DNA of 64,000 bases from Mytilus trossulus. Taxonomy: Eukaryota. Shown one piece after another: positions 3,527-57,861 of this stretch (within the stretch, counting starts at the first letter, position 1; each line of letters opens with the position of its first letter). The translations under genes and the position numbers were made by a program. The stretch lies in NCBI RefSeq assembly GCF_036588685.1, contig NC_086379.1:76694001-76758000 (forward strand). The letters are read 5' to 3'. The notes below the pieces were generated by a model. That model was not told the origin of the DNA and did not search any database. It worked only from the letters and a program-made list of their open reading frames with translations.

Positions 3527-4829
3527 TGCCTTTCAAGCACTGTACCTTTATAGGAAAGAATAGGCCTATTAAATTCTGTACCTTCATTGGAAATAATGAG
3601 CCCATCAAGCACTGAACAAATTTTGGAAAGAACGGGTCAATCAAGCACTGTACTTTTATAGGAAAAACATGGGCCAATCAATAGATACAGGTATTCAAAG
3701 ACGTGGTATGAGTGCCAATGAGACAACTCTCCATCCAAGTCACAATTTATAAAAGTAAACTATTAAGCCATCAAGCACTGTACCTTTTAGGAAAGAATAA
3801 GCTCCTCCAACACTGTACTTTTATTTGTAAGGATGGTCCAATCAAGTGTCGTACATTTGTAGGAAATAATGGGCCCATCAAACAATTTACCTGTATTTGA
3901 CAAATTGGGCCATCAAGTACTGTACCTGTTGTTTGAAAGAATGGTACATCAAGCACTGTATCTTTATTTGAAAGAATAGGCCCATCAAGCACCGAAATTT
4001 TACAGGAAAGGATAGGCCCATCAAGTACTGTACCTTTATTTGAAAGAATTGGCCCATCAAACACTGTACCACGTGAAAGAATAGGCCCTTCAAACACATC
4101 ACCTTTATAGGAAAGAATCAAGCTTTGTGCCATTATTTAAAAGATATGTCTTTCAAGCACTGAACCTTAAAAAAAGAATTGGCCCATCAAGCACTGTATC
4201 TTTATCAGAAACAATGGGCCCTTTTATCAGGGTACCTTTAATGGAAACAATGGGCCCACCAAGCACTGTGCCTTTATAGGAAAGACTGAACTCATCAAGC
4301 AGTTTATCTTTCATTGGTAAGAATGGACCCATAAATCACTACCTTTACAGGAAATAATGGACCCATTAAACACTTTACCTGTGTTTGACAAAATTGGCCC
4401 ATCGAGTACTGTACCTGTTATTTGTTAGAATGGCCCATCAAGTACTGTACCTATTATTTGATAGAATGGCCCATCAAGTACTGTACCTGTTATTTGATAG
4501 AATGGCCCATCAAGTACTGTACCTGTTATTTGATAGAATGGGCCATCAAACACTGTATTTTAATGGAAGTAATGCACTTTACCTTTATTTGAATGAATTG
4601 GCCCATCTAACACTGAAACTTTATAAGAAAGAAAAGGCCCTGCAAGCTCTGATCCTTTATTGGAAAGAAATTGTTCTTCAATCAATGAACCTTTAAAGGA
4701 AATGATAGGCCCATCAGTCACTGTACCTTTATGGGAGAGAAAAGGCCAATCACACACTGTATCTTTATTTGAAAGAATTGGCGCATCAAGCACTGAACTT
4801 TTATAGGAGTGAATAGGTCCATCAAGCAT
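3527..4829. repeat. 36-bp minisatellite array, roughly 34 degenerate copies
   Basis: Unit is approximately GGCCCATCAAGCACTGTACCTTTATTTGAAAGAAT(N). TGGCCCATCA recurs at 4431, 4467 and 4503 (period 36). A short interspersed-repeat 3' end interrupts the array at about 3685-3765. Confidence 0.9.
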
Positions 4830-8795: not shown

Positions 8796-11700
8796 ATGGA
8801 CGGGCGTGTTCTTGTGGTCTTCACATTCATGTGTGTTAGTGTTTATAGTAGTCAAGTGTTGTTAGTATCTATGGATGGCTTCAGATGGGACTATTTGACG
8901 AAAGTTTCCACTCCAAACTTTGATCGCCTTGCTCGAGATGGGACTAAAGCCAGTTACATTAATAACACCTTTATAACGAAGACTTTCCCCTGTCATTATA
9001 CTATAGTCACTGGTAAGTAGTATTGAAACCTTTGCTTTCGTCAGGGTTATATAGGATATATTAAGTGTAGACTGTAACTAAGGACATATTGTTCATAAAT
9101 TTGCATGTTAATTTATTACAGTTTTCAGTAGGAAATTGAAAAAAATACTGAATAAAAATCTATTATTTTTTTTATTAATTTACTGGTTTCGAAACAAATA
9201 TTGGTAATACAAATGTTTAAGAAATAAAAGGATGTTTAAAAACACTTTTTTCTGAGTCAAAACGATGTAGGTCGGGTCTGGTTTGTGGTCAAGATTGGTG
9301 TAGTCATCTTATTTTTATTTATTTTTAATTAAGCCTAAATTCATATAAAACTTCAAATTGAAAATAAGCTTGAATGCGTTTGAAAGTACTACTAAACAAA
9401 TGAACGTGAACTTGCATGTAAAAGTAAATTCTTTTAGGTTAGAATATCAAAATCTTCGCAAGTGTAAGCTATTGCATTATTGTGTTCACGTACACTAATT
9501 CACCGACATTTTCCCGTATGGAGTGAAACTACGAAACAATACGTTAGAACTTCGACCACCGCAAAGAGCAAGTCTAACGGGAAACCCGGTTTGAAAGAAT
9601 GTAAACAAACGTGCATTAGCAGGGGAAAACAATTGTAAAGAAGACATTTAATAGCCAAATCATATAACAACTGTTTAAGGGAAAGTTGAATAAAAAAAAA
9701 AGATGGGAATGCATGGAAAGTTACATCTCAAATAATACACGATGGTCTTGATGTATAGATTCTGCGTACTGATGTTGTTTATCATCTTAACAACATGTTT
9801 TACTGTTCTTTCATTTGTCTTTGTTCTATTATTAATATTACTTTTACTGTTGAATGGTTTTATGTAATTCCGTTTGACGTGGCTCGGTACTTATACATCT
9901 CGTCAATGTGTGTGTATTGGCTTTTATTTTTTGGTGGTTTGTTTTGTATATGCGACTCTTTGTATTTCTTTTGTTCTTATTACGTGACTCTGTACTTTAA
10001 AAGATCCCGTCAGTATTATTTTGGTCTATTATATGTCATTATGATATATTTCTATTATGAATTACTATATACGTTGAACCACAAACGTCAAAATCATTTA
10101 ATCGCGTAGTGGAATTAACTATTTTTGGATTCTCGTAAATTCTACCTAACGTAAGGGTACCCAAATTGCACCGAGTACCCAAAATGCACCTATTTAGAAA
10201 AAATAGCAACGGAAATCGTACAAGATTTCGTAGAGACAAAACAATTTGTATTTTTATGATTTGATACTATGCACGTCTTTCAACATAGGTAAACATATTT
10301 AGATATACACAAAACGTTCACAGTATTTATCAACAGCTGGACTGTTTTACTGAAAAAGCAAAATGTACGAAAACGTCATCATGCGACGTCATCAAAACGT
10401 CATCTTTTTAAAATTGGCAAATACAATATATTATAAGTATCCATTTCGTAAAATATGAAGAGTAAGCATGGACTAACATCCAATTGTTCAAAATATTTGA
10501 AGAAATTAAACAAAAGCTCGGTTATTAGACTTTTGACGATGTAAATTTAAGCATGGATGCAATTTGGGTACTCCTCATCACAGAATCATGGATAATTTGG
10601 AGGTTGATTCAAACCCATTTTTTTATGACATCAAATTGAATTAAAAATTAAATTGGTGTACCTATAAAATAAAGAAGGATAGGGCTACAAAATAAACACA
10701 TTAAGGACATTTATTTCTTGATCATAAAAAAACGTCAGTGAAAAAACTGTCAAAATAGGTGCAATTTGGGTACCGTCACGTTATAACTTTTGGACTAGTT
10801 TAAATCTCGGTCTATTTCTGTAATTTGTTCTTACATACTTTTGATTTTTTAACTCTGTATGCTTACATTGCCTATGTAAATTTTAAAACTGTTTGTATGC
10901 ACATTGAACGACAAATTTATGTGACGTATACAAATTTTATGACGTCAGACACTCAAGTCAATCCATGTGTTCGTAGATAAATGTTTTTGTGTTCTGTTAA
11001 ATTTTCCCTTTTCAAATTGTTATGCAATGATGACTGATGTACCCATATTGTGACTATTTTATTAATTGTGACTGTTTATTTAACGCATCATGTAAATATA
11101 ACGGAATTTGATGAGACTGTTATTAAAGGGAGAGGGTTAGCGTTATAGAACCAGGTTTAATCCACCATTTTTTACATTTGAAAATGCCTGTACCAAGTCA
11201 GGAATATGACAGTTCTTGTCTATTCGTTTTTGATGCGTTTTGTTTATTTGATTTTGCCATGTGATTATGGACTTTCCGTATTGATTTTCCTCTGAGTTCA
11301 GTATTTTTGTGATTTTACTTTTTATTGATTGTTTTTTTAATGTCAAGATCCAGTTAACTGCGGCATAATACTAAAAAGTTAAGTAACTTGTGTTCAACCA
11401 TTAATTGTCGATAATTCGTTTTAGATTTGAAATAAATGTAAAAATGCATGCAGTACTAAGTTTTATGTAGATGCATGCATTTCCAATAACAGTTTTAATT
11501 CAAGAAACTCTTTTCAAATTCAAGTGGCTTAATTACTTTACAAATTGTGACTTGGATGGAGAGTTGTCTCATTGGTACTCATACCACATCTTCCTATATC
11601 TATTTGCACCTTTTCTTGTGATTGAAAAAACATTTTATGGTTGAATTGTAGGTCTATATGAAGAAAGTCATGGCATCATTGGGAATAAAATGTATGATCC

Positions 11701-15879: not shown

Positions 15880-16335
15880 AAACAGGCTTATAATTTGATA
15901 CGCCAGACGCGCGTTTCGTCTACATGAGACTCATCAGTGACGCTCAGATAAAAAAAATAGTAGACCCAAACAAGTACAAAGTTGAAGAGCATTGAGGAAT
16001 CAAAACTCTAAAAAGTTGTGCCAAATACGGCTTAGGAAATATATGCCTGGGATAAGAAAATCACCGAAGTGCTGACAACTGGACCGGTGATACCCTCGGG
16101 GAACGAAACGTCCACCAGCACTGGTATTGACCCAGTGGTGAAAATAGATATCATAGGTACAAGGCTGATAATTTAAAACTCCAAACGCGCTTTTGATCTA
16201 CTTAAAACTCATCAGTAACGCTTATATCAAAATAGTTATGAAGCCAAACAAGTACAAAGTTGAAAATCAGTGAGGACCTAAAATTCCAACTTGAAGAAGT
16301 TGTGCGAAATACGGCTAAGGTAAGTTATGCCTGTA
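15880..16335 (-). mobile_element. Non-LTR retrozyme-like tandem repeat (about 278-bp period) with type I hammerhead motifs
   Basis: Two tandem units start at about 15882 and 16160. The first hammerhead is intact; the second has a mutated GAAA and cleavage triplet. Confidence 0.8.
15900..15943 (-). ncRNA. Minimal type I hammerhead ribozyme
   Basis: Minus strand reads GCGTCA-CTGATGA-GTCT(CATGT)AGAC-GAA-AC(GCGC)GT-C-TGGCGT. It has the full catalytic core, stems I, II and III, a GUC cleavage triplet and a palindromic GCGC loop 3. Confidence 0.9.
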
Positions 16336-18042: not shown

Positions 18043-21000
18043 ATGGACAAACTTTTGCTTTTAGTAATTGTGTCCATTTTAGTCATTAATATTAACTGTA
18101 TTCAAGTGTTGTTAGTTTCTATGGATGGCTTCAGATGGGATTATTTGACGAAAGTGTCCACTCCAAACTTTGATCGCCTTGCTCGACATGGAACTAAAGC
18201 CAAATACATTAATAATACCTTTATAACGAAGACATTCCCTAGCCATTATTCTATAGTTACAGGTATGTTATATTGAGAACAATCTTTGCTTTTTCAAAGG
18301 ATTATTTTGGAAAAACTGGGCTAGAAGGTAAGTCATCGAACTTTCATCAATTGTGTACATGGATTTTTTTTTTGGTAAATTGAATTATTAAATCCTTAAT
18401 TAATCAAAAAGAGTTTCAGAAGTAAAATTTGTAAAATTTGTGTTTGTGTGGATAATATTTGAGAGAACTGAAACAACACTAATATCATTCAAAGACGTGT
18501 TTTTTTATGGTATTTAAAAGATAAGTTTGTTTTTCTAATTAGGTTGATATTTGTTTAGAAGACTGTTTAAGATAATAGATCGCATGGGGTATAGTTGGGA
18601 GATTGATTTTTTTTCCATTTTTTATTTTTTTCAATTTATGTTTCAGTCTTTATATGATCATACACGCCATGCAGGAAACAAGCCAACTGCATGTTGAAAA
18701 CATAAAATGTATACTAGGGTACGCTTCTATAATAAAAATAATTCTATACTGGACTATTAATTTACGTTTTTTGATTGAGTTAGGTCTGCTCATTGATATT
18801 TTATCGTGTGTTTTTCTATGATGTGATGTCATGCTATTGTTTCAGAAAAAGGGAAAAGGTTTGGGTCCATTAAAACGTTTAATCCCGCTGCAAATGTTTG
18901 CACCTGTCCTAAGTAAGGAATCTGATGTACAGTAGTTCGTCTTTTGTTTATGTAATTTATACGTGTTTCTCGTTTCTCGTTTTTTTTATTTAGATTAGAC
19001 CGTTGATTTTCCCGTTTGAATGGGTTTACACAAGTAATTTTGGGGCCCTTCATAGCTTGTTGTTCGGTGTGATCCAAGGCTCCGTGTTGAATGCCGTACA
19101 TTGACCTATAATGGTTTACTTTTTTAAAATTGTTATTTGGATGGAGAGTTGTCTCATTGGCACTCACACCACATCTTCCTATATCTATATAATTGTTTAC
19201 TTTTTTAAATTGTGACTTGGATGGAGGGTTGTCTCATTGGCCTTCATACCACATCTTCCTATATCTATAACTTCTTCAGCTTTCTATCGAAGTTTTTTAA
19301 TCGCAGATTATGGCAAGTCAGCATATGTAAAGAAACACCACATAGATATTTAATACAGAAGAAATTACTGTTATTTAACAGTCCAGCTGTTTTTTTATAT
19401 ACACAAATGATTTAATATTCGCCTCAACCTAATTTTACTTGATCCGATGTTGATAGTTATGATTGAGGTGTTTATATATACGTGGGGTTGAAATGACGTA
19501 CCTGAAAAGGAGCTTCATTACTTATCAATAAAATTGAGAATGGAAATGGGGAATGTGTCAAAGAGACAACAACCCGACCAAATAAAAAACAACAGCAGAA
19601 GGTCACTAACAGGTCTTCAATGTAGCGAGAAATTCCCGCACCCTGAGGCGTCCTTCAGCTGGCCCCTATAGACATTAGACATTATTTTATTTTTCCAATC
19701 ATGGGCCCTTGTCAGGCAAGATACAAAAACATCATAATACAATGATTATATAAACATTAGTGAAATACACAATAAGTAATACACAAACAATAAATTGATA
19801 ATACGAGCAATGTAGGATATAATTATAGTAAGAGACATTGAGTGCAATGAGGCCGATTTAATATTAAAAGGATATGATATTAAGTTTATTTTAAAATACG
19901 GAAACTAAAAAATAGCAAAAATAGAACCGGGAATATAGTATCTCAATCTGCAGTAGTTCTCCTCATGACCAGTGCACAGTAGTGAGGGACTTCATCACAA
20001 CAATGCAAAGGTCATCAAGGGGGGATCCTTCAGAACTAGCTACAGATACATGAGATTACTCCAATAGTGATTCTCCTCATGACTAATGCACAATAGCAAG
20101 GGTTAACATTGCTACTGGACAATATTCATCAAGTGACGGTGCTCTAGAACTCACTATGGAGAAAATATAAAGTTCAAATTACAAGTAGTAGAGGGAAATA
20201 AATCCCATTAAAACTTTTCATATTTCTTAATGAACATGCATAATTCTGATAATAAATTCTCATCTTCATTATTCATTAACCATATCAGTTTTTGTTAAGG
20301 GTCAAGATATTGAAAATTCTTGCAGCAATTATTTATCATTGTTATCATGTCTTTCCTTTGATCTGATAAACTATCACAGTTAAAACGAAAATGTGTTTCA
20401 TCTTCGACCTCATTACTACAACATCTCTTACATATTCTATTGTGTCGGGGAGTATTACTATATCTACCTCTCTCTATAAGTAAATGGTGAGCAGATATGC
20501 GAAATCTTGTTAGACTCCGTCTATCTTCAAATTTTTTAACAATATCAAGATATTTTTCACAACCAGAATTTGCTTTTAACGTAACATATGTGCAAAGTTT
20601 TCCTTCTAAGTGAGTTTTGAGATTCTTTTCCCAATCTTTTAACATGGCAATTCTTAGTTTTCTGTTGTCAATTGGTTTAGCCATGTCTGAGGATATTTGA
20701 TAATTATTAATCAGGGAAAGAAGTTTTTTCAGATGACATATACCATGATGGTTTCTTTGACTCATACAATTTCTTTGATTCTATAAATGCATTATATAAC
20801 AATGGAAAGTTAGTGTCTGACTTTTCTAATCTGTAATAGTATTTAGTCATTGCTTTAATCATGTTAAAATATATTGGTAGTCTTCCCAACTCAGTTAATA
20901 CTGCAAAATTGGTGCTTTTTTTTGGAGCTCCAAGAATAAATTTACAGAATTTAGTATGAAGTTTTTCAGCAGGTAATTTAGAATAAATATGGTCAAATGA

Positions 21001-25364: not shown

Positions 25365-28300
25365 TTAAGGTGTTGGTGGGTCAGTGCTTGGGTTGTCTTG
25401 TCTCCTGCACTGGTTATTAAACAAAGGTCCAGAGTATTCTCCAGCTTGACATACTCTAAGTTGTGTCCTTCCAAAATTTACACAGCGCCCTCCAATTCGT
25501 CGTGTTCGGTACTGTAAATACGACAGACAGCAATGTGAATAAAAAAAACTAACGATACAATCAATACACACATAATTAAGACTTCAAGACAGAAACTTGT
25601 AATCCGGACGTTATCGTTGATTGTTGTTTACCATAAATGAGTTTTGTTTATTGTTTTAATTTTCGTCTGATCGTTGGTTTTTGATGAGACCGTCGTAAAA
25701 CTGAGAGGTTTAGCGCTATTAAACCAGGTTAAATCCACCATTTTCTACATTAGAAACTGCCTGTACCAAGTCAGGAATATGACAGTTGTTGTCCATTCGT
25801 TTGATGTGTTTTGTCATTTGATTTTGTCATGTGATTAGGGACTTTTCGATTGAATTTTATTCGGAGATCAGTATTTTTGTGATTTTACTTTTTTTCTATT
25901 TTGAATTGTTTCACATACTGTCATACCTGATATTATAGGTTATTATACAGTAAAAGTTTTGTTTTATTCTTGAAATCCGTACGCGACAATATGTTGTTTT
26001 CATCGTTGTCCTTTATGTCTATGAATACATGTCTCGTTTGCAATCATATTGCATCTCCTTATTTTATTTTTTATATTTGCAACACATGTAATTTAATTTA
26101 ATTTTGGATGTAACGCGTCTTTTGATTGGCTGACGCTATTTTGTTATCAGCCCATAGACATTACTTAGTCATGTGACCATGACGTCATCAACGCTTTTTC
26201 ATGGTTTTCTATGGTTTAAAATGAAATTTAGAATTAAAGTATAAGAAATGACTGTAATATTTTTTCTGTCTATTCGAAATAACATAAAAAATGTAGTGCA
26301 CACTGTTAAATAAACCGCTACGCGTGTTATTCAGTGTGCAGCAATTATTTTATGTTATTTCTTCATAGACAGAACAAATATTACAGTCATTCCTTAAATA
26401 ATATAAATAGAGTGCATTTTTAGCTACATTCTTAAATTTGACAGATATAACGTTTAGTTTTTTCGTTCAAATTGTTTTACCTGGTCATTTATGGGCCTTT
26501 TATAGCTTACAATGCAGTATGTGCTTTGTTCATTGTTGAAGGCCGTACGGTGACCTATAGTTGATAATTTCTGTGTCATTGTGGTCTCTTGTGGAGAATT
26601 ATCTCATTGGCTATCATACCACATCTTTTTTTATATATATAGATCCGGTTTTAATCAGAGCCTAATTATCTCTTTTGTACCTCAGCAGAAGTTTTTAGAT
26701 ATGTTACTGACGTTTTTTTCATATCCAGTTAAGGTGTTGTCTATGCTTTTCTATCATTCACATATTGGTTGTTTCATATGTTATTCTTGTTAATAAAGAA
26801 CCATAATTTTTTTCATTTAGTGATTGTAAATTCCAGCAATTTATCATGTACATTCGAGCCAATGCATCGGGGTTTGCGATGGTCTAGTTTCATATCAAAT
26901 AATTCATTGAAAGACGTTTTTTGTGTGTACCTAACATTAAGCAGCCCCTCCTAAAAAACAACGAAAAAATATAAAAAGGGGAAAAAACAAAATATGAGTA
27001 TCACAGAAAATTTATATTTCAAGAATTATAAGATTCATTTGCCTTTATTGTTTTTTTTTATATTGTGTTTTGTGTGCTGTTATTTGTTTGTCTGTGTTTT
27101 TCTTTTTTAGTCCTGGCGTTGTCATTTTTTTTTCGATTTGTGTCCCTTTATTAAATGTATCCTGGTCTCTCTTTTGTGAAAGAGGGACGAAAGATACCAA
27201 AGGGACAGTCAAACTCATAAATCTAAAAAAAACTGACAACGCCATGACTAAAAATGAAAAAAGACAGACAGACAAACAATAGTACACATGACACAACATA
27301 GAAACCAAAGAATGCACAACACGACCCCATCAATACTTACCGTTTCAACTTCTACATAACATTCCACATCATTAGGAGATGGTGTGTCAGGTGCAAATCT
27401 CTGAATCTCATCTCTACTGAGGAAACCATCACTGGCCGCGTCTAGTAAAGCTTGATAACTGGGATTTGATAATGTCTGTAAATATTTAAAGTATAAAAAC
27501 GTATTTTGGATGGTAAATATAGGTATCGTTTACACATAAAAATTATTTCATTTCATAAGAACAATCTGTCAAGTTAATGGATAAAGGCAACAGTATTATA
27601 CCGCTGTTCAAATGGAAGAGGAATTGGAATTTGGAAAAAAACATACTTTTGTTTATTTATCAAAAACACTGAATTGAGAGTTTTGTTGTTTACACATGAC
27701 TTAAAATGATTATTTTCTAATTCCAATTGCAGTTTATTCACATGAAGATTATCAGCCTTTAATTTTAAATACACACCAAACATGTGTATCTTATGTTAAG
27801 TCATGGAAGTATAATTTTGATAAAATACTGCCATGGAAAATTGAACTACATCTTTTATAAATATGCAATCTAATTCACAACGTTTTGTGCAGTGACTAAG
27901 ATAAAGTTAACGTTATTATTACCACTGCATGGGTGGGTAATAGTACCTCTGCTGGTAGACTTTTTAATGGATACTGGTTTTTTTTAAATTTGGGGTTATA
28001 CAATTTTAGAAAACATTTTAAAATTAAGTCAGGGAATGGACCCCCATCGTGTATAGCTATGAATCCTTGGCAAATTTGGTTTTGGTCTATTTTTGATTTA
28101 TCTCTTCTTCAACGTTTGAAATAAATTCGTTTTAATATTTTGAGCGAGCATCCCAAAAGAGACATTAATTGTCGAAATGCGCATCTGGTGCAGTGAAATA
28201 AAATTAAACTGTTGACGTGAGTATATACCTAGTCAGAATTGATTCGAGTCAACCTAGCCATATAAAAAGTAAAATCACAAAAATACTGAACTCAGAGGAA

Positions 28301-42500: not shown

Positions 42501-45029
42501 CAGAGGCTATAAAACATTTGTTCTTAAAATTATAATACAAATACAAAAAGACAACTATCACAAGAATAAAATACATTTTCCTTTACGAAATTTCACAGCA
42601 GAATTTTGTAGTAAAAATACGACATTTGTATTTGTAAAAAAGAAATATTATTATTACCTTATCAGTCTCTAGAAATAAGAACGAGAAATTTTGCGATCTG
42701 CTTCCAGCTTAACTTAAAAAAATCAAGCAGAATTTTAGAATATTGGATGTTGTTGTTGTTACAAACAAATATGATGACTTTGTATTGTGCAACAATCCAC
42801 AAAGGGGAATAATTTTATAAGGATGCGAGGCTATTTTCTGTGTACAATGTCAGAGGAATATTTTGCTGATGGAACCTAGTCAATCATTTAGTTGTTAAAT
42901 AAAACTCAATAAAATTGGTGCAATTAGAGGATTATTTTGTTGGCGCAAATGATACCTATAGTTTTGAAAATTAGGTGGCGCAAAAGAAGTATTGGCGCAA
43001 TTAAGTTGTGGCGCAAATGAGTTACTTGTTGGCGCAAAAAGATATCGCCCATGTATATAGTATTCAGAAATTTTCTCAGGGTAATCATACATTACATTAG
43101 ACACTAATCATCAGAAACACAATAATAAACCAACCATGCATAACAGCCAGGTGTATTGCAGTAGCATTTTCACACTGTGGGTTTGTAATGTTGACATTGA
43201 TATCAGGACTTTTGACCAGTATTGTGACCATTTCTGTGTTGCCATTGTTAGCTGCTGCATGGAGTGGACTGTTTCCTGTATCAGCTGCTTGGTTCACATT
43301 GATTTTTGGGTTCACCTGAAAATAAAGAAACATTTCATGTTGGAATTATATTTTAGCTCTTAAAATCAAATGCTTTAATTTTTCAAAATATGCATGTACA
43401 TGCATGACAAGTATCATGCATACATAAGAGTAATAGTTTGTGCAACTATAATAGCAAAAGATTTATATGAAAAAGATATCATATTTAACATTACAAATAG
43501 ATTTCGTCAGTGTCAGTAAAGTTAAATTCGTTCTCATTTTTATTATAAAATGTATCAGGAAATCTAATGTTCGGTAGTTGTAGGTTGTTGATGTGGTTCA
43601 TAAGTGTTGTTCTTGTTTCTTGTTTTTTTTTAAAAATTTTAATGGTCTCAAACTAGTAATTTTTGGGCCCTTTATAGCTTGGTGTTCAGTGTGAGACAAG
43701 GCTCAATGTTGAAGACTGTACTTTGACCTATAATGGTTTACTTAAATAAATTGGAACTTGGATGGAGAGTTGTCTCATTGAAACTCATACCACATCTTCG
43801 TACAGTTATCAGAAATGACCAAAATAGTTTTAATATAACCTTACCCTATTTATAAGGTATTGCAGAACATCAGGTTGATTGTGCATTACAGCAGTAAAGA
43901 TGGTTGTCCTGTCATGAGAATCTATGCTCTTTAGAGAAACATGGCCACTAACATTATAATAATGTACAACATCAACATAACCTAATCTAATAGCCTGAGA
44001 AAGTCTCACATGATGAATGTCTTCATTGTCCTGGTTACTGCTGTGTGATATTGGATTGCTGTGGTGAAGTCGGTCTATTAAATTACGGTAGAAGTTTACA
44101 ATAGCTGACCAACAGCTTACAATAGCAAATGAGCGAATGGCTAGTAGCCACTGTGCATACTGTTTATTTCTGGTTGAACACTTTACATCAGACAACATTT
44201 TCTTATATTCTTCTTTTTTACCAGAAGTAAGAACTCCAAGGTAGTCTAGAAATATGTGAGATCCCTTTGAACTGAGCAGCCTACCTGGGTACTCCCTGAA
44301 CACAGCTTTAGATAAATCTAGTACATCTCTGTAATTTATCTTTCTTTGCTCACGCCCCACAGTAAAAGCAAAAGAAAGTTCTTCAGTAAGAATTCCATTT
44401 TCTAATTCAAATATCTCCTGTTTCTCAACACCTGGGAAATCAGACAACCAAAAATGAGCAAAGCGAACAAAATTATCACCAATGTTACAGAAATTTGAAA
44501 GTTTTTCCACACTTTCATTGGCACGGCTTAACCATGCTGAAACCACTGTTGCATCCATATAACACATCATGTTGTCAAAGTTTGTTTGCTGAGGAGATTC
44601 TGAGACACCAATTGGTTGAGATGATGAATCTACATCAAAACTGGAGGATGGTCGCAAAGGTGGTAGTGGCATATGTTTTTGTGGCAAATCATGTCTATAC
44701 GGAACAGTATGTAAAGCCTTTTGCCTTTTCTTTCTTTTACGTTTTGGTTTCGAGTCACTTACTGACAAATCTAATGAAGTTGATAACGGTAATTCTAATG
44801 AATTGGACACTTCAGGTGGTGTTTCTCCATTAGTAACGCAACCAGAATCGGGAGAAAAACGTTTCCCTAATCCATTACGGCTATCACATGAATCTGTACT
44901 GCCTAAGGACAGACGATCAAAATCATTGGTCACATTATCGTCATCTGATATAAACTCTTCATCACTATCTCTTACTGTCAAACGAGACACACAAATTAAG
45001 TCACGTAAGTCCCTTACACCACGACTCAT
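39550..45029 (-). CDS. FAM220/SIPAR-domain protein with C-terminal ankyrin repeats, 498 aa, 3 coding exons
   Basis: Exons 45029-43845, 43315-43135 and 39680-39550 (GT-AG, phases 0 and 1); in-frame stop 4 codons upstream of the ATG. The segment YPGRLLS..IFLDYL..S..EYKKML..ST..LLAIRSF resembles the conserved C-terminus of human FAM220A as I recall it. Basic NLS-like KPKRKRKKRQK. Ankyrin motifs GNSPLHAAANNGN, TAIHLAVMHGH and TAVDIARDFGH. Confidence 0.85.
40161..41943 (+). mobile_element. Helentron-type non-autonomous element (HINE-like) with about 3.3 internal repeats of roughly 501 bp
   Basis: TT-AGCTCACC..GTGAGCT 5' inverted repeat and (CGTC)n microsatellite. Units start at 40240, 40741 and 41243. 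3' AGGTGAGC, hairpin AGGCTCT-TT-AGAGCCT, then CTAG-TT. Confidence 0.85.
42220..43050. mobile_element. TIR element with inverted sub-terminal TTGCGCCA repeats and AT flanks
   Basis: AT-GGGCAGAATCAATTTGCGCCA (four TGCGCCA copies) ... (multiple TGGCGCAA copies) TGGCGCAAAAAGATATCGCCC-AT. Confidence 0.7.
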
Positions 45030-45083
45030 TGTTTTTGATCACAGATATTAGCTAAAACTGGTTATTATTTTGATCCTACATTT

Positions 45084-45263: not shown

Positions 45264-48200
45264 TAGTCACATGTCTTCATGTATCCAATTTCTTCTAAAT
45301 CTGAATGAGAATAAAGAAAACATTATCAACAGCTGACTTAAATGCTTAGCTACAATCCATCCAACATAGAATAGGACATTAAAAACAAGTTTACAAAGTT
45401 AAAATGGTTAAGTGGTGAGAAAAAGTTGTATTTCAATTAGGAATAAATGAGTAGGTAAGTATGCAAGGCTTTATAGTTTACAACTGGCTGCTTTTTGCAG
45501 TATAAACAATGATAACAGTTGAATATTTCAGGTGTGATTTTTTTTTAATTTTGATACAGTTACACACTTTTTGCACATCTCTATATTTATCTATTGGTCC
45601 CTGTAAAAGAGGAAGCTTGGGGAAACAATGAGATAGAAACAAAACAAATAAAACTGAAATGGGGGATGTGTCAAAGAGACAGCAACCAAACCAAAGAGAA
45701 AAAAAACCAAAGACCACTAATTGGTCTTCAACACAGCGATAAAATCCCACACCCAAAGGTGTTTCAGCTGTCCCTTAAACAAGAATGTGCTCAGTGATAT
45801 GGAGGCCATGCTTAGTAGCCTAACTACATGTACATGTTAACAAAACAAAATCTATATATACATGTATTGTAAGGAATGATGCATAAAAAATCTTTCTAGC
45901 AAAAAAGTATCAAAATTGCCTTTAAAGTTTCTGAATGATCAATTACCTGTTAATATGTTAGGATGCTAAGAATGTTCTATATGAAGAAGATTTCTGGTTT
46001 TTAACAATTAATGGTTCTGGTTAAAGTCCAAATGACTATGATTTCATGAAAGGCTATTATAACAGTGTATCCCAACCTCTGTCTGTCCGACAAAATGTTT
46101 GACAAAAAATCATTCAGTCTGACAGACAGAAATTTAAAAAATATTTGGGTTGAATATATAGTAGAAAAATCCAAATTTCTGTTTCGGTCAGAAAACCCTA
46201 TCTTAACAGTTTGGCACAGACTCAGACTGTTATACTTTTTTTCTTTGATGCCTTACAGTGACATGCTGTGTGGATATGCAGTAGAATGTGTCCCTGTGTC
46301 TGTGGCTATGCCATTATATTTTTACAGTTTGAGTTTTTTCTTGTGAGAGAGCTGTCTACATGTCGATGTAAGGTGTCAAAGAAAAATAGTATAATAGCCT
46401 TTCAAGACGTAATAATTATTTGGACTATAAATCTATAATAAACAAAAATGCAACCATTCAAGCATTCAATTTCAGAAAAGTCAACGAATGTTGTAAACTT
46501 GTTGCCTTTCATGGGATCACCTGAACTTAGCCACCACAATATTTGTATACCAGTATTGTCAACAGTACTCATATACAATGTATAATTAATGTTTGTAAGC
46601 ATTGTATACAAGTATTGTCCTAGTATCATGAGTATTGTTTATATAAAATTAAGAAGAATGTTACTATTACTGCTGCTGCATATATTCAAAAGTAATGTAT
46701 TTACTTGAAAAATATATATATTTCTTGAAACATTTATTCATTTTATAATAATGCATCTGAAAAATATAAATTATAGTTTATTTTGATATAAATGTTCTTT
46801 TTCATGATTAGGAGAAGTTTATAAGCCCAAGGATATTTTAATTGATGTTAAACAATTTCAGACAATTTCAGACTCTTTATCTACCATTTAGTTATCCCTT
46901 AATAGGACTGTTTGGCCACTGTGGGACTTTTCAGTACAAAAATGTATATTAACTATTTAGACTGGATACTGTTCAGTGATGTGGATACACAAGTTGTTGA
47001 ATGCATCTTATATATTCTTCCCCAATCATTCTTGTCACTTTCTTTCATCTAGATAGGAATCAAGTGCTTCACTTTAAACCCTTTTTACTATCTTTAATTT
47101 TCTGTTTTGTTTTGGCCCAGCAGGATTCAATAATATTATATTATGAATAAATTTAAACATGTTTCTTTGTACATGTTGTATAACATACTAAACAAATCCT
47201 TGATGAAAATGACAAACCCTATTGATTTTTTAGATTTTTTTTTTCAATAATACTTGTACAAATGTACATTAATAGGCTATTTGTCAATTCCTGTAATTGA
47301 CCCTATAATTAGAGATCCCTAATTTGGTTGTCTCCCTTGTGACGGACATAATTTTTTATTTACAATGGAGAGCTAGCAGACAGAGCAAATCTACCTGTGC
47401 ATAATGTGAGTAATCTATAAGGTTTTTAAATCTTTTAATTACATTAATTTGTTGTTTAGCTAAATACTTTTGACATCAGAAATTATTTTTCATGAAAAAT
47501 TAGTTAAACCGCCGATACATCACTTTCAATTCATCATGCTTTGCATTGGCAAAAGGGAATCTTATACAGTTTGGAACTAAACTGGCCCCCTGTTTTGTTC
47601 ACTTATCGCTACACTGACAACAGGTATGGCCTTAATCCTGTGGTCAGAATTCTGACCACAGGATTTCATAATTTGACGAGACTAGTGCACCATGTGCTAT
47701 GTTTATTATGTGTTATACTGATAGGAAATCAAACAAGAAATTAGCACATTTATAACCCTACTGAGTTCTTAAGGGAATAAAAGATACAGGCTCAGTATGT
47801 CAAGAACACGTTAAGATCTGTTTACACGCTCGTTGGTCATTTATTTGCGCTACCACCATGGGATTAATTAACAGATACTTATTTATTTTGCGGCATCACA
47901 GTATTAACATTTGAGGTCAATTTCCTATCACTATTATTGGTCAATTTTGTTAGCAATTCGTTGAATTTGTCAAACTTGTCCAATTAATGCCAATGTGACA
48001 ATGGCAATAACCCGTTCTTTCGGTGCAAAGCTATAGATAGAAGGGCGGACTAGTTTAGTATGGAACCAGTCTACGATTGACAAAGGGACGTAATTTTTTG
48101 AAAAAGTGTGTAATAATAGAATCAAATCAGTAATTAGCAAATGGACTATTATATACATTTGTACAAGTATATTGTTGACAATACTAATATACAAGTATTG

Positions 48201-48635: not shown

Positions 48636-51600
48636 ATGGAAATAAAATTTGATGGAAAGAAAGCTTTAGTGACAGGGGCCGGGAAAGGTATCAATATATA
48701 TACATTTCACATAGCTCTAGACCACACTTTACTATATCTTTTCTCGCTGTTTGATGAAAGTTGCAAACGTGGTTTTATAAATCAGATATTGATGTATCTG
48801 AATACCCAAAAGACATGGAAAATGACTATTGGTCAAACGGTCATTTTTGGCTACTATTTTAGCTTTAATTTAGTTGAAATTTTACCAGAATTCCTCAAAC
48901 GGGTTAGATGATGAAATAATAAACATTAACATTATTTTTGGGTCTGAAGAATGGGTGTTTCATAACGAATAACGGTAAACATTATTTCCAAATAAAGTTA
49001 ATTCGTGATTTAACTTTTTTTTCATATAACTGTTTGTATTCACCACTTCTTATTTTTGTTCACATTTGTGCTGTGTTGATTTAAATTTTAATTATCATTA
49101 ACTAATTGATTAAAATATTTCAATGATTGTTAAATTATTTTCCTTCTTTAGGGAAAAAAAAAACAGAAAAAATAGCTACACTATGAAAAATTGTCCCTTA
49201 TGATATATTTTTATAAAACTTCCATGAAATTATGTCCAAGTACTAGGGACAACTTTTCACAACAGGAGACACTATTTTATAATTTACAAATGTGATGTTC
49301 TGTCCCTTGAACGAAATTTCACAGATGAACTGTGAAATATAGTTCAAGACACAATTTCATGGGACACTTTTTTGGCTTACACATCATGACATGTATGAAG
49401 ATAAAATGTACAATTTCTTCAAGACAAAAAAAAATCACACTTGTGTGTGTTTTCATAATATCGCAAAATGTTGCTATAATCATCAAAAAGTCATGTAATG
49501 GATACTATATATGCCCTTGAATTTTTACTACTGATAACATTTTTGTACGCTTTGGGGATTCCGTATATCGTCAGATTATCGGAATTCCAATGGGGACTAA
49601 CTGTGCACCACTTATTGCGGACCTCTTTTTGTATTGTTATGAGTTACAATTTATGACAAAAATAAGCAAAGACCCATCAAAACAACATCTGATAAACAAA
49701 TTTAATAATACTTTTAGATATTTGGATGATATTTCTGCTCTCAATAATGACGACTTCAGTATGTATATTAATGAAATTTATCCTGCTGAACTTACTTTAA
49801 ATAAAGCTAATACTAATAATGACCACTGCCCTTTCCTCGATCTTGATATCTATATCACTAACGGAAAGCTGAATACTAAAATTTATGATAAAAGGGATGA
49901 TTTTTCATTTCCTATCGTTAATTATCCGTTTTTAGATGGTGACGTTCCCTTGTCACCATCTTACGGTGTTTATATATCTCAACATGTACGATTCGCTCGT
50001 GTTTGTAACAATGTTTTAGATTTTAACGAGAAAAATTTATGTATTACTGAAAAATTATTACACCAGGGTTTTTCGATATCACAAACTAGTCAAAACTTTT
50101 ACTAAATTTTATCATCGGTATAAAGACATCATTCGTAAATATAGCTCAACATGCAGACTTTTTATACGTTCAGGTATTTCACATCCAATTTTTTATGGAA
50201 ATATTCTTTATAAAGCACAAAGGTGTCAGTATTCACCTCAGAAACTTACAAAACCTTTAAATAGACTGATTAAGAAGGGATATAATTATGATACTGTTGT
50301 CAAGTCATTAAAGATTGCATATTTTGGCGTTAATATTGAGTCACTGATAAGGTCTTTGCGTCGGAACTAAAGACATTTATTCTAAAAACAGTTGTTGGCA
50401 TGACACGGGTTATGTTCTTCTCATATATGTTATGATGGTATGATACTAAACCCCTAAAGGGAAGGATTGTGCCTGATGTTCATATGATGAAATCATAATC
50501 TTTCAGTCAGTTTAATTGAAGTCTGGAGCTGGCATGTCAGTTAACTGCTAGTAGTCTGTTGTAATTTATGTATTATTGTCATTTTGTTTATTTTCTTTGG
50601 TTACATCTTCTGACATCAGACTCGGACTTCTCTTGAACTGAATTTTAATGTGCGTATTGTTATGCGTTTATTTTTCTACAGTGGTTAGAGGTATAGGGGG
50701 AGGGTTGAGATCTCACAAACATGTTTAACCCCGCCGCATTTTTGCGCCTGTCCCAAGTCAGGAGCCTCTGGCCTTTGTTAGTCTTGTATTATTTTAATTT
50801 TAGTTTCTTGTGTACAATTTGGAAATTAGTATGGCGTTCATTATCACTGAACTAGTATTTATTTGTTTAGGGGCCAGCTGAAGGACGCCAACGGGTGCAG
50901 GAATTTCTCGCTACATTGAAGACCTGTTGGTGACCTTCTGCTGTTGTTTTTTATTTGGTCGGGTTGTTGTCTCTTTTTGACACATTCCCCATTTCCATTC
51001 TCAATTTTAATGATATTAGTACCAAAAATTTTAAAATACCAGAAATCAATCTCTAGATCTTTGATAAAATGTGCAAATTTTGAGAGTAGTAGGTAATTAA
51101 TGTGTAAGAATTTGCATTTTATTATAAAAATAAACATGTTTTAGCATATTTTTGGTTTTTTTTACAAAAAAAAAGAATACTTTTGTTTGAATCAATTTTT
51201 TCCAACATTGCCACATAAGGGGGAGGCAACTCAAATGTAGGGGTAGATAATTCAGATAAAGATCCTTTTTAAAATCGAATGTGTTATGAATTTACCTATT
51301 TAATTTTTTCTTTTTCTTATCTGAAAGCATAATATTAGAGCTATCTTTTCACATATCATCTCAAAACTCTATGTAGTGTAGTTTTTTCGTTTTATGGCAC
51401 ATAATTGGGTTTTCCATACAAAATTTATAATATCTGTCAATTTTGCACAACCCTTAGAGTGAAAAAAAGCCCTGTGACCCATCTTTATATGACCACAAAA
51501 ATGTTTTTGGGATCTTATTATGGTATGTTCTCTTTTTCGTCTGCCTTGTCAGTGTCGCCTGAAGACACATTTGTTTTTTTTTGGACAAAAACTTTACGCG

Positions 51601-54600
51601 AATGGATCTCTGAAATTTTATAAGAAGGTTCAATACCACAAAAGGAAGGTTGGGATTGAATGTTTGGGGATGATGATCCCACTGATTTAGGAATTAGGGG
51701 CCCAAAAGGGCCCAAAACAAGCATTTATTTTAATTTTCAGGATAATAACTTATGTATAAGTCATGTAAGTATTTCAATTGCTTTATAATCGTACCACAAT
51801 GTTTAATTCCACAAGTGAAAGGTTTCGATTCATATTGGGGCCTATGGTGTCAACATTTTAGAAATTAAGAGCTGAAAAGGGGCCAAAAACAAGCATTTTT
51901 GTAGTTTCTGGACAATAACTTGTGTGTAAGTGTATGGGTATCTCTGACATTGTACTGTAACGTTCCATATCATAACAGGAAGGCTGGGATTGAGTTAAGG
52001 GGGTATTGCACCATTTAAGCAGGAATTAGGGGCCATAAAAGAGCCAAAAACAAGCATTTTTCTAGTTTCCAGACAAAAACTTGTGTTTAAGCGTATGGAT
52101 CTCTCTGAAACTGTACTACAAGTTTCCATACTATTAAGGAATGCTGGGATCAAGTGTTGGAGTAATTGCTCTTAAGGAGGCGGGGTTCTAAAAGTTGGGG
52201 GGGGGGGGGGTGTCAAAATTTTGAAGGGTTTTAACTTTTTTTCAAAATTTTATTAAACTTCAAAATTGAAGTTTCAAGAAGAAATCTTTAATTGCACAGT
52301 TTTGTGCAATAGATTTGTAGGATCTTTACATTTGAGTTGTGTCAGAAACCTTTATGTCAAAAATTTGATCACAATCCAAATTCAGACAGTATCTATCAAG
52401 CTTGAATATTGTGTCCAAATTTGCCCCAACTGTTCAGGGTGCATTCAACCTCTGTGGTAGTATCAGATTGCACTCAGTGAAGCAATTTATTTTTCTTTTT
52501 TTCTTTTAAACAGCCTGTTATAAACTACATTTTGGCAAATTATAAGAAAATTCTATGGATTATAATTTAGACTACCTTAAAAAAAAGCAAAAGGTTATTT
52601 TTTTTCAATTTTCCTAATGATAAGATTTAATCTATACCTTTGTGTTTATAATTTTAGTAAAACTACAAAATCTAAATTGTGATAAAATTTCGAATTTGCT
52701 ACTTAAATTAGTGATTTTTTAAAGTGATTTAAAAATCACTTATTTCAGCAATTCCCCTGACTAATAAGGTGAAATAATTCATTAATCACTGACTGATACT
52801 TAATGTATCATTGTCCATACATTTTCAGGGATTGGTCGTGCCATTGCTAAGAAATTGGTAGAATGTGGTGCTGAGACTTACGCTCTTAGTCGAACACAGT
52901 CTGATCTTGACACTTTAAAAAAAGAGGTAAATATTCATACAATAATTTATTTCCTATCTAAGAGAGAGTTGTATTGTTTTAATCTTTTTGTCTGTCACAT
53001 CAGTAAGCTTGAAGTGAAATTTTGTTTAGCTTTAAAGATCTTTAACAAGAAATAATTAGAAATTTGGGAAGTCGATAAGAAATTAGATTACTATAGTCCA
53101 GTGGTTTCACCATTTTTTGGAAGTTAATATGAATATTCATAGTAAAAATATTGGTCATGCTGTTACATGTATTTGTATGTAACAAATAACTGATTAATAT
53201 ATTGCAAAATCAGAGATTTATGATAATGAAGGGGAGGGACTATGGGGTCTCAACACAGTGTTCTGTCCTCAGGCATCTGTGCATTTAGCTTTTTATCATA
53301 ATCTTATCTTACATTCATGACATTCCCCCATAATTTTTTCAAGATAACATTTTTTATGCCCCACCTACAATAGTAGAGGGGCATTATGTTTTCTGGTCTG
53401 TGGCTCTGTTCATTCGTCCGTTTGTTCGTTCGTCCGTTTGTTCGTTGGTCCGCAGGTTAAAGTTTTTGGTCAAGGTAGTTTTTGATGAAGCTGAAGTTCA
53501 ACCAACTTGGAACTTTGTACACTTGTTGCTTATGATATGATCTTTCTAATTTTAAAGCCAAATTAGACTTTTGACCCCAATTTCACGGTCAACTGAACAT
53601 AGAAAATGAAAGTGGGAGTTTCAGGTTAAAGTTTTTGGTCAAAGTAGTTTTTGATGAAGCTGAAGTCCAATCAACTTGAAACTTAGTACACTTGATGCTT
53701 ATGATATGACCTTATTAATTTTAAAGCTAAATTAGACTTTTGATCCAATTTCACGGCCTATGGAACATGGAAAATGATAGTGACAGTGGGGCATCCATGT
53801 ACTTTGGACACATTCTTGTTTATATATATAACCTTAAAGGGCTTTTAACTCATTTTATAATACTTTCCTATTTCCTATTATCTTATTTGCTAAGAATAAC
53901 AATATTTAAGTCATAAATATAAAAAAAAAAAGGTTGTTGCATTATAAAAATTAAAGGTAAAGGTAAATTTACCTGGATTGAAAAGTGAGAGTAGTACTAA
54001 AATGAAATTATAAATGTTAACAATGACAATTAGGCAAAAATTAATAAAGTTCTCAAATTATATAGGGGATGAAAACAGCACAGCAAGTCTTTAAAATCCT
54101 TTCATACAAGAAGTACAAATATATTAAAGATATAAAAGGAATTTTTACAACCTTCTGAAAGCACATGTAGTAAAATTAAGCAATATTTGAAGACCTGTTA
54201 TTTTTGAGTGTATCTGGGTAAAAAATTATATCATTGTAGTGCACCAAGGATCCTCGAGTTACACTGATAAAATATATATTCTTTAGCTATATTATGATCT
54301 ATGATCATGTATATTGAAATTACATGTGCTAATTTCTGTACAAATTATCTCCCCTTTTATTGCCAGAACTGAGTTCTTTTTTTTTGTAGGTTCATTGATG
54401 TGTTAAACTGTAGATCCTTTATAAGCACATTTTGTTATGATTTTAAAAATGTGTGCACAGTATATGCTTTCATGCGTCAATAAAACTGCAAAAAATAATC
54501 ATTGATTTCTTAAAAATTTATAAAATAAAAAATAGTTATCTAAAACTAACTCCAAGAACAATTCAAAACGGAAAAACCTTCATAAAATGTCAAAATCAAA

Positions 54601-57600: not shown

Positions 57601-57861
57601 CTCTGTCCAAACTAAGATATTATTCTAATTAAAATATTCACCCTTCTACTCTAAATAATTAGGTAGTTTTCATGTGACAGTTGCACAACAAATGCACTTA
57701 AATGAAGTTTAAAAAATGATCTTATGTTAATCAGAAGTAAACCTTTCTTTTTTTCAGGGGTTGAAGATGTAGTGAACAGTGTAATTTTCCTTCTAAGTAA
57801 TAAGAGTGCAATGACAACTGGGGAATGTGTTAGAATAGATGGAGGCTTGGGAGTACACTGA
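48636..57861 (+). CDS. DCXR: L-xylulose reductase / dicarbonyl reductase (SDR family), 244 aa, 7 exons
   Basis: Exons 48636-48687, 52829-52926, 55146-55300, 55753-55795, 56125-56289, 57191-57308 and 57758-57861 (735 nt, all GT-AG, in frame). Motifs TGAGKGIG, NNAG, catalytic S and [26 protein letters not shown] and RIPLGKF are characteristic of DCXR. Confidence 0.93.
50421..50487 (+). promoter_or_regulatory. SECIS element (form 2)
   Basis: Helix I TCATAT/ATATGA. Core ATGAT(50432)/TGAT(50474). Helix II GGTATGAT/ATTGTGCC is fully paired and extended by CT/AG. AAA sits 11 nt above the core. Apical mini-stem CCCT/AGGG. Confidence 0.8.
50683..50773 (+). ncRNA. Twister ribozyme, type P5 permutation (best-preserved copy)
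   Basis: P5 GGTTAGAGGT/GCCTCTGGCC (10 bp including GU); P2 GGGG/CCCC; L1 GA-GGG; T|AA at 50726/50727; T2 GC/GT; P3 GCA..TGC; P4 CCTG/CAGG enclosing TCCCAAGT. P1 is non-canonical. Confidence 0.8.
53352..53818 (+). mobile_element. Helentron-like non-autonomous element with an internal repeat of about 169 bp
   Basis: ATGCCCC..GGGGCAT 5' inverted repeat and (TCGT/TCCG)n microsatellite. GGTTAAAGTTTTTGGTCAA occurs at 53455 and 53624. 3' GTGGGGCAT, hairpin and CTTG-TT. An inverted partial relative lies at about 35655-35890. Confidence 0.75.
56739..57128. mobile_element. 390-bp MITE, inverted copy of 29306-29695, in DCXR intron 5
   Basis: Same TIRs and interior. Inserted in the palindromic target ATCAAT/ATTGAT. 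Confidence 0.9.

Follow-up and report, generated by a model that had tools for sequence, protein, structure and literature searches.

A truncated Naiad copy in an intron of a DCXR-like gene

The window, i.e., the whole stretch of 64,000 nucleotides from the Mytilus trossulus contig NC_086379.1 that was analyzed here, carries a short-chain dehydrogenase gene (DCXR-like gene, Table 1); among PDB entries, this gene matches L-xylulose reductase best. Its first intron holds, in sense orientation, a 5'-truncated copy of a Penelope-like retroelement from a family that we termed Naiad family A. Both the intronic location of this copy and the TGA stop codon of the host gene agree with the original prediction, which was made from the sequence of the window. 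The frame of the reverse transcriptase (RT) remnant is broken twice, by a 2-nt insertion at 49531-49532 and a 1-nt insertion at 50073, and its surviving frames contain no in-frame TGA, as had been noted before. A putative target-site duplication at the copy would comprise 3-5 letters at most. The originally described order of RT, SECIS, twister, and terminal repeat holds in part: the succession of RT, SECIS-like hairpin, and twister-like motif recurs in three families, whereas the 'terminal repeat' is unrepeated in the window copy and acts as a pseudo-LTR in tandem copies.

Table 1. Features of the DCXR-like gene and of the Naiad copy in its first intron (window coordinates).
Feature	Position	Strand	Basis and remarks
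First coding exon, DCXR-like gene	48636..48687	+	GT and AG read; short-chain dehydrogenase exons
Intron 1, DCXR-like gene	48688..52828	+	Splice signals GT/AG read; the element lies here in sense
5'-truncated copy of Naiad family A (unit positions 2512-4015 of 4016 nt)	49501..51009	+	98.2% identity, over 1509 nt, with a full-length copy
Dead remnant of the C-terminal RT and thumb (aa 722-1002)	49501..50370	+	Stop TAA 50368-50370
SECIS-like hairpin, form 2	50422..50486	+	Rfam SECIS_1 match and cross-family pair changes
Twister-like motif, P5 permutation	50683..50773	+	Fold, pattern matches, and compensatory changes; cleavage predicted
Element 3' end, pseudo-LTR in tandem copies	50774..51009	+	Loci L031-L036, with 4016-nt units in tandem and 3' pieces upstream
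Last coding exon, DCXR-like gene	57758..57861	+	TGA stop 57859-57861, 7.4 kb downstream of the SECIS

A form 2 SECIS-like hairpin downstream of the RT stop codon

The hairpin begins with a helix I read from the sequence (50422-50426 paired with 50482-50486). Sequence and Rfam alignment place A50432 and then the core UGAU (50433-50436) opposite UGAU (50474-50477); a spacing of 11 nt (50437-50447) separates this core from the AAA at 50448-50450, and helix II is paired at 9 of 10 positions. The apical 3-bp stem (50451-50453/50459-50461) appears in both the Rfam alignment and the minimum free energy fold. Thus, each part of the SECIS geometry originally claimed (UGA quartet, 11-nt spacing, AAA, and apical mini-stem) was found, and the hairpin, expected about 50 nt past the RT stop, starts with helix I 51 nt and with AUGA 61 nt after the TAA codon.

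In an Rfam scan of 1.7 kb, the hairpin matched SECIS_1 (RF00031) along its full extent with 32.2 bits (E 5e-4). A scan of the whole window at gathering cut-offs returned neither SECIS nor twister; the hairpin is missing there because its score lies below the RF00031 gathering score of 35, which is a library threshold and not a biological feature. The SECIS_1 match in the full-length family A locus L047 reaches 32.8 bits, still below this value. Folding of the hairpin gave z = -1.15, with 32 of 200 shuffles equally stable, and a loose SECIS descriptor found four distinct matches in the window, where 20 shuffles gave a mean of 1.95. Taken alone, the hairpin goes modestly beyond chance and is weak evidence by itself; what makes the case is where the hairpin lies and that it recurs in sister families.

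Genome-wide counts of a 31-letter segment from the family A SECIS gave 2,992 occurrences, against none in the control. The 5' core is invariant in 64 of 64 family A copies, and position 50458 in the apical loop is a private change of the window copy, all 64 other copies having C. Conservation within family A gave no SECIS signal, with 1.61% non-majority bases in the hairpin and 1.35-2.0% in its flanks. The Mytilus hairpin shares the UGAN/KGAW core, the apical adenines, and the extra apical helix with the eukaryotic type II SECIS (RF00031; accessible part of PMC3753652), but it differs in its score below the cut-off and in its setting, with about 3,000 mobile copies instead of a single host gene.

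Four fixed TGA codons in the reading frame of family A

Naiad family A is young and very common in this genome. The search with the window copy produced 5598 candidates, among which 40 scored copies are 97-98% identical. The full unit measures 4016 nt, and longer copies stand as partial tandems. The unit contains a frame of 1002 codons, with the endonuclease first and the RT last, that is interrupted by TGA at codons 55, 86, 97, and 522. We compared these codons in 42 long loci. Eight of them extend 1.5 kb or more upstream, and 34 come from the 40 loci that best match a stretch free of the TGA sites. Among covering copies, TGA occupies codon 55 in 32 of 37 (the others have TTA in three cases, ATA in one, and TCA in one), codon 86 in 38 of 39, codon 97 in all 39, and codon 522 in 38 of 39. 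Neither TGT nor TGC was observed at the four sites in any covering copy, and stops elsewhere in the frame occur in at most two copies per codon. The frame is intact with all four TGA codons in 11 of the 42 loci, and one further locus has three TGA codons. In one of the copies with TTA at codon 55, the tandem L031 (G000:C8:27109470-27117500), Leu replaces the first TGA in an otherwise intact frame. Since the family A copies are near-identical kin, some of them in tandem, these counts show the ancestral state of one family and not independent events.

The original prediction had placed any selenocysteine (Sec) codons in the lost 5' region and expected full-length members to encode a GIY-YIG domain at the N-terminus, with conserved in-frame TGA aligned to Cys. 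The long copies carry exactly such codons: the three N-terminal TGA codons align to Cys of Cys-type relatives, and the fourth aligns to a Cys located eight residues past the DKA motif (hereafter DKA+8).

Among the listed sequences that hold the element, none is recorded as RNA. Reads of four raw RNA runs, possibly of another species, cover the unit over its full length on both strands and are strongly 3'-biased, which would fit an origin of most reads in truncated copies that lie within host transcripts; a sense excess in one run is given no weight here. The three endonuclease TGA sites are mostly kept as TGA in these reads: TTA was found at codon 55 in 4 of 33, 0 of 64, and 3 of 49 reads, codon 86 differs in 5 of 69 reads of one run, and codon 97 has no change among the matches listed.

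Protein domains and relation to published Naiads

The GIY-YIG motif was located at residues 92-108 by alignment with relatives, with invariant R, H, E, and N. Pfam recognizes GIY-YIG in 11 of 26 aligned relatives and not in the query itself; it named neither the endonuclease nor the RT of the family A query, and searches of the PDB by sequence brought no useful match. A structural model of the N-terminal domain (pLDDT 81) has the I-TevI catalytic domain as its best fold (probability 0.99, E 0.03), a predicted resemblance that is weak by itself. The frame further contains a zinc-finger-like CX2-5CxxC motif (C50-U55-C58), a CCHH motif formed by U97, C102, and conserved His, a CxC motif (C385-x-C387), and DKA at 512-514, and it encodes Trp by TGG. 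By the criteria in the accessible part of PMC8557442 (Craig et al., 2021), the GIY-YIG domain together with the CxC and DKA motifs identifies family A as a Naiad. Other Naiad traits are also present, namely 5' truncation, partial tandems (pseudo-LTR), and a body within 3.4-4.4 kb. No hammerhead was found by Rfam in the window copy or in the full-length locus L047; canonical hammerheads are not reported in Naiads in the accessible part of PMC8557442.

Four consensus sequences of predicted selenoprotein Naiads have been published, Naiad_Scon and Naiad_Mmer from clams and Naiad_Sdum and Naiad_Smim from spiders, with a claim of independent origins (Craig et al., 2021; accessible part of PMC8557442). 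They share with family A the N-terminal GIY-YIG domain, CxC, DKA, C-terminal RT, a unit of about 4 kb, 5' truncation, tandems, and a SECIS in the 3' UTR. Three of the four TGA sites of family A coincide with sites of the clam Naiads (one preceding the GIY-YIG motif, one at the first Cys of CCHH, and one at DKA+8), whereas the other, at the second Cys of CX2-5CxxC, corresponds to a site of the spider Naiad_Sdum and is given only for a spider in the accessible part of that paper. The distance of the SECIS from the stop codon also differs, being 51 nt in family A, and 143 nt to AUGA in the sister family D described below, against 1-21 nt in the same source. The family A SECIS is of form 2 and the published ones are termed 'type I'; this difference is soft because the clam SECIS, inspected by eye, can also form a short apical stem. 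Naiad_Mgal and Naiad_Mcor belong to the same clade and probably to the same host genus as family A; however, they are of Cys type, with no UGA or SECIS noted in the accessible part of PMC8557442, and have a 5-aa mussel insert in the zinc finger that family A lacks.

Sister families and conservation of the TGA sites

Two sister families, termed C and D, have about 62% protein identity to family A each. Among the 20 family D loci fetched, three have intact frames with five TGA codons, the fifth of which replaces the first Cys of the CxC motif (UxC). The family D loci L185-L204 (e.g., G000:C3:48570500-48575200) are very young, with copies 99-100% identical. TGA is present at every matched site in this family (6/6, 6/6, 6/6, 10/10, and 13/13, sites with changed flanks not counted). 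Family C is more decayed; in its 19 loci, TGA occupies DKA+8 in all five loci reaching there and the CxC site in two of two, and the three N-terminal TGA codons are present in the only tandem unit seen. The UGA at the first Cys of CxC in families C and D is not among the sites in the accessible part of PMC8557442. Identity between families A and D is 71% at first, 80% at second, and 45% at third codon positions, with the same pattern on either side of the last TGA. Families A and D share TGA codons while third positions are near-saturated and the frame remains under purifying selection on both sides.

In families A, C, and D alike, a SECIS-shaped hairpin stands between the stop codon and the twister-like motif; the hairpins differ in sequence but have the same geometry, and in family D, the 3' core is CGAU. 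Mean pairing of helix II is 8.86 of 10 in family A (78 matches, overlapping loci counted twice), 8.65 of 10 in family C (26 matches), and 10 of 10 in family D (21 matches). Compared across these families, helix II pairs at 9, 9, and 10 of 10 positions, respectively, and at 5 of the 10 pairs both partners have changed between families; these cross-family pairs were counted on anchors, since MAFFT misregistered helix II. The SECIS_1 model matched family C at three loci (24.5-27.2 bits) and had no match at three others, and it did not match the family D hairpin. A Cys-type family similar to Naiad_Mgal is also present in the genome (3283 pattern matches), and no SECIS was found in five of its five loci by Rfam or the descriptor, a control that is modest because Rfam also misses the family D hairpin. 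The genome contains two tRNA-Sec genes. Long tandem arrays at G000:C10:63843916-64589390, with a period of about 890-900 nt, are tRNA-like and score 45.9-47.6 bits, near the tRNA-Sec cut-off; they are probably another tRNA type.

A twister-like motif in the Naiad 3' ends

The first pattern search followed the general layout of twister ribozymes. A relaxed pattern matched 8127 times in the genome and not at all in the reversed control, and a variant pattern matched 3283 times against 2 in the control. The Rfam model RF02684 has no match in the genome, but none in 14 control genomes either, so that this negative is uninformative; no Rfam match was obtained in the window copy. Elements P2, P3, P4, and P5, two pseudoknots, and the U-A cut site of type P5 twister ribozymes (RF02684; accessible part of PMC5408937) can be drawn in the Mytilus motif, with the cut predicted between 50726 and 50727. 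Compensatory changes between Naiad families affect P2 (CCCC/GGGG and UCCC/GGGA), P3, and pseudoknot T1 (CCC/GGG in families A and C, CCU/AGG in family D, and ACC/GGU in the Mgal-like family), and P3 and P5 differ in sequence yet pair. In contrast to type P5 twisters, the Mytilus motif has no Rfam match, its cleavage is a prediction only, and its P1 is weak (-2.7 kcal/mol within one strand, -15.4 kcal/mol as a dimer), with two palindromes (50707-50714 and 50717-50726) sitting where P1 would be; such palindromes were seen in four families. Ordinary RNA-seq showed no pile of read ends at the predicted cut among the matches listed, a result that is uninformative as to cleavage.

Twister-like variants were recognized by eye in five published bivalve consensi, Naiad_Mgal, Bpla, Mphi, Scon, and Mmer (accessible part of the PMC8557442 supplement), although a search of the same part with four exact twister words gave no clear match in a Naiad 3' end. 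Given its occurrence in these consensi, the motif is not tied to Sec. The word 'twister' does not occur in the accessible text of PMC8557442, and twister variants are described in Schistosoma non-LTR elements in the accessible part of PMC8501958.

Public relatives and switches between Sec and Cys

We collected 70 public relatives through a length filter of 233-742 aa, which hides full-length Cys-type proteins, so that proportions among them mean nothing. At DKA+8, 38 of them end exactly before the site, 19 have Cys, one has W, and 12 do not reach it; of the latter, seven stop exactly before the CxC site and two others have W there. In total, 45 public protein clusters end exactly at one of these two sites, presumably at a TGA codon, and the W residues most likely reflect the code used by the gene caller. 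In a tree of 51 rows, which omits eight short Cys rows and the 12 rows not reaching DKA+8, all stop and W rows fall into one group with one Cys row (support 100/98). A quicker tree of 41 rows, which lacks one Cys row on a long branch as well as 20 of the 38 stop rows, unites 23 Sec-type and five Cys-type rows in one group (SH-aLRT 99) and requires at least four changes at DKA+8. Cys is found at this site in the relatives closest to family A (76-80% identity). The published clam and spider proteins are absent from the trees and were compared by eye. Both trees are midpoint-rooted only and give no direction of change; the simplest reading would be a gain of Sec followed by reversions to Cys.

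A gene model for a Mytilus edulis sulfotransferase (protein P0064) contains 55 residues that are 84% identical to the Naiad endonuclease, representing either an annotation artefact or an exonised insertion.

Proposed selenocysteine insertion and alternative explanations

In the established eukaryotic pathway, Sec is inserted by SBP2 and eEFSec with Sec-tRNA. We propose, with a probability of roughly 0.9, that the hairpin is a 3'-UTR element of a high-copy Naiad with four fixed TGA codons at Cys sites and serves as a SECIS for Sec insertion; the SECIS family is very likely functional. Host SBP2 would bind the tandem G-A core and recruit eEFSec with Sec-tRNA. All UGA codons lie upstream of the RT core, so a full-length RT needs each of them to be read through. 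Three Sec residues would replace Cys in putative zinc-binding motifs of the endonuclease region, and the fourth would sit eight residues after DKA. The twister-like motif, about 240 nt downstream of the SECIS, is predicted to cut tandem transcripts to unit length and to leave the SECIS on the coding piece. Reverse transcription, which in Naiads is known to start at the 3' end and often to stop early, would scatter SECIS-bearing tails like that of the window copy, which is dead and whose SECIS would be spliced out together with intron 1.

Were the TGA codons true stops, the family would be non-autonomous and depend on a Cys-type Naiad for its movement in trans; the hairpin would then be either a relic or a look-alike that arose by chance. 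A candidate helper exists in the Mgal-like family, and chance yields loose SECIS shapes at a rate of about two per 128 kb. This explanation is nevertheless highly improbable given that the same TGA codons are kept between families at near-saturated third positions, with the frame under purifying selection on both sides, that intact frames occur in two families, A and D, and that three different hairpin sequences hold one geometry. It is likewise very unlikely that the UGA codons are passed independently of a SECIS, by leaky reading as Trp or Cys or by internal initiation of the RT, with the hairpin having a role in packaging or priming of the RNA. With four or five leaky stops one after another, very little full-length protein would be expected; moreover, the sites are Cys columns, Trp is encoded by TGG in this frame, and the conserved letters are exactly those of the SECIS core and AAA. 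Nothing direct speaks for leaky read-through, the W in two public proteins at TGA sites being most likely a product of the gene-caller code.

The sense orientation of the element and the TGA at the end of the DCXR-like gene might suggest that the window copy donated a SECIS that recodes this stop. A eukaryotic SECIS acts from the 3' UTR (accessible part of PMC8557442), whereas the window SECIS lies in intron 1, upstream of the host TGA by the distance given in Table 1, and so cannot recode it; the chance of such a donation is practically nil, as already suspected in the original prediction.

A further and rather speculative possibility is that a large bivalve Naiad clade has made its transposition selenium-dependent. 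The four to five serial UGA codons upstream of the RT, one SECIS, and a pairing-gated twister would then form a throttle, retuned in individual lineages by Sec/Cys switches at single sites, and the thousands of SECIS tails might be the main pool for SECIS gain by host genes or a sink for SBP2.

New in this analysis are the mussel-type host, the fifth (CxC) site, the nearly 3,000 SECIS copies, the public clusters ending at the sites, and the repeated Sec/Cys switches; the breadth of the Sec clade, and intact copies that make a test possible, add to their value. Related literature includes the accessible parts of PMC6765202 and bioRxiv 10.64898/2026.07.22.740005; beyond PMC8557442, titles and abstract openings outside subscription journals and bioRxiv supplements returned no paper on a mussel Sec-Naiad, on SECIS exaptation, or on twister in Penelope-like elements. 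Two families are represented in this genome by intact copies, Sec- and Cys-type forms at 76-80% identity make natural pairs, and one family has no fewer than 2,992 SECIS copies; for comparison, an oyster has about 32 selenoprotein genes (a figure quoted in the accessible part of PMC8557442). Two questions raised in that part of the paper are testable here, the role of Sec in a retroelement protein and the seeding of host selenoproteins by truncated insertions. For annotators, the many public proteins cut at exactly these codons are a warning.

Other elements in the window

Four Naiad families have left short 3' fragments, over 20 in all, between positions 3677 and 62832 of the window. These include 426 nt of family D at 18763-19188, two minus-strand ends resembling family A (19529-19668 and 45656-45812), and twister-like motifs at 11132-11197 and 25705-25770. 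Intron 1 of the host gene also contains an imperfect tandem repeat whose period is close to 170 nt (51578-52150, plus strand). A 402-codon frame at 43830-45038 on the minus strand, head to head with the DCXR-like gene, matches FAM220 (E 5e-64). At 15900-15943 on the minus strand, Rfam identified a type I hammerhead ribozyme whose score of 34.1 bits lies at the cut-off; near-identical hammerheads occur at L138:1154-1197 and L152:498-541, and the window hammerhead probably belongs to a retrozyme or to another Penelope-like family.
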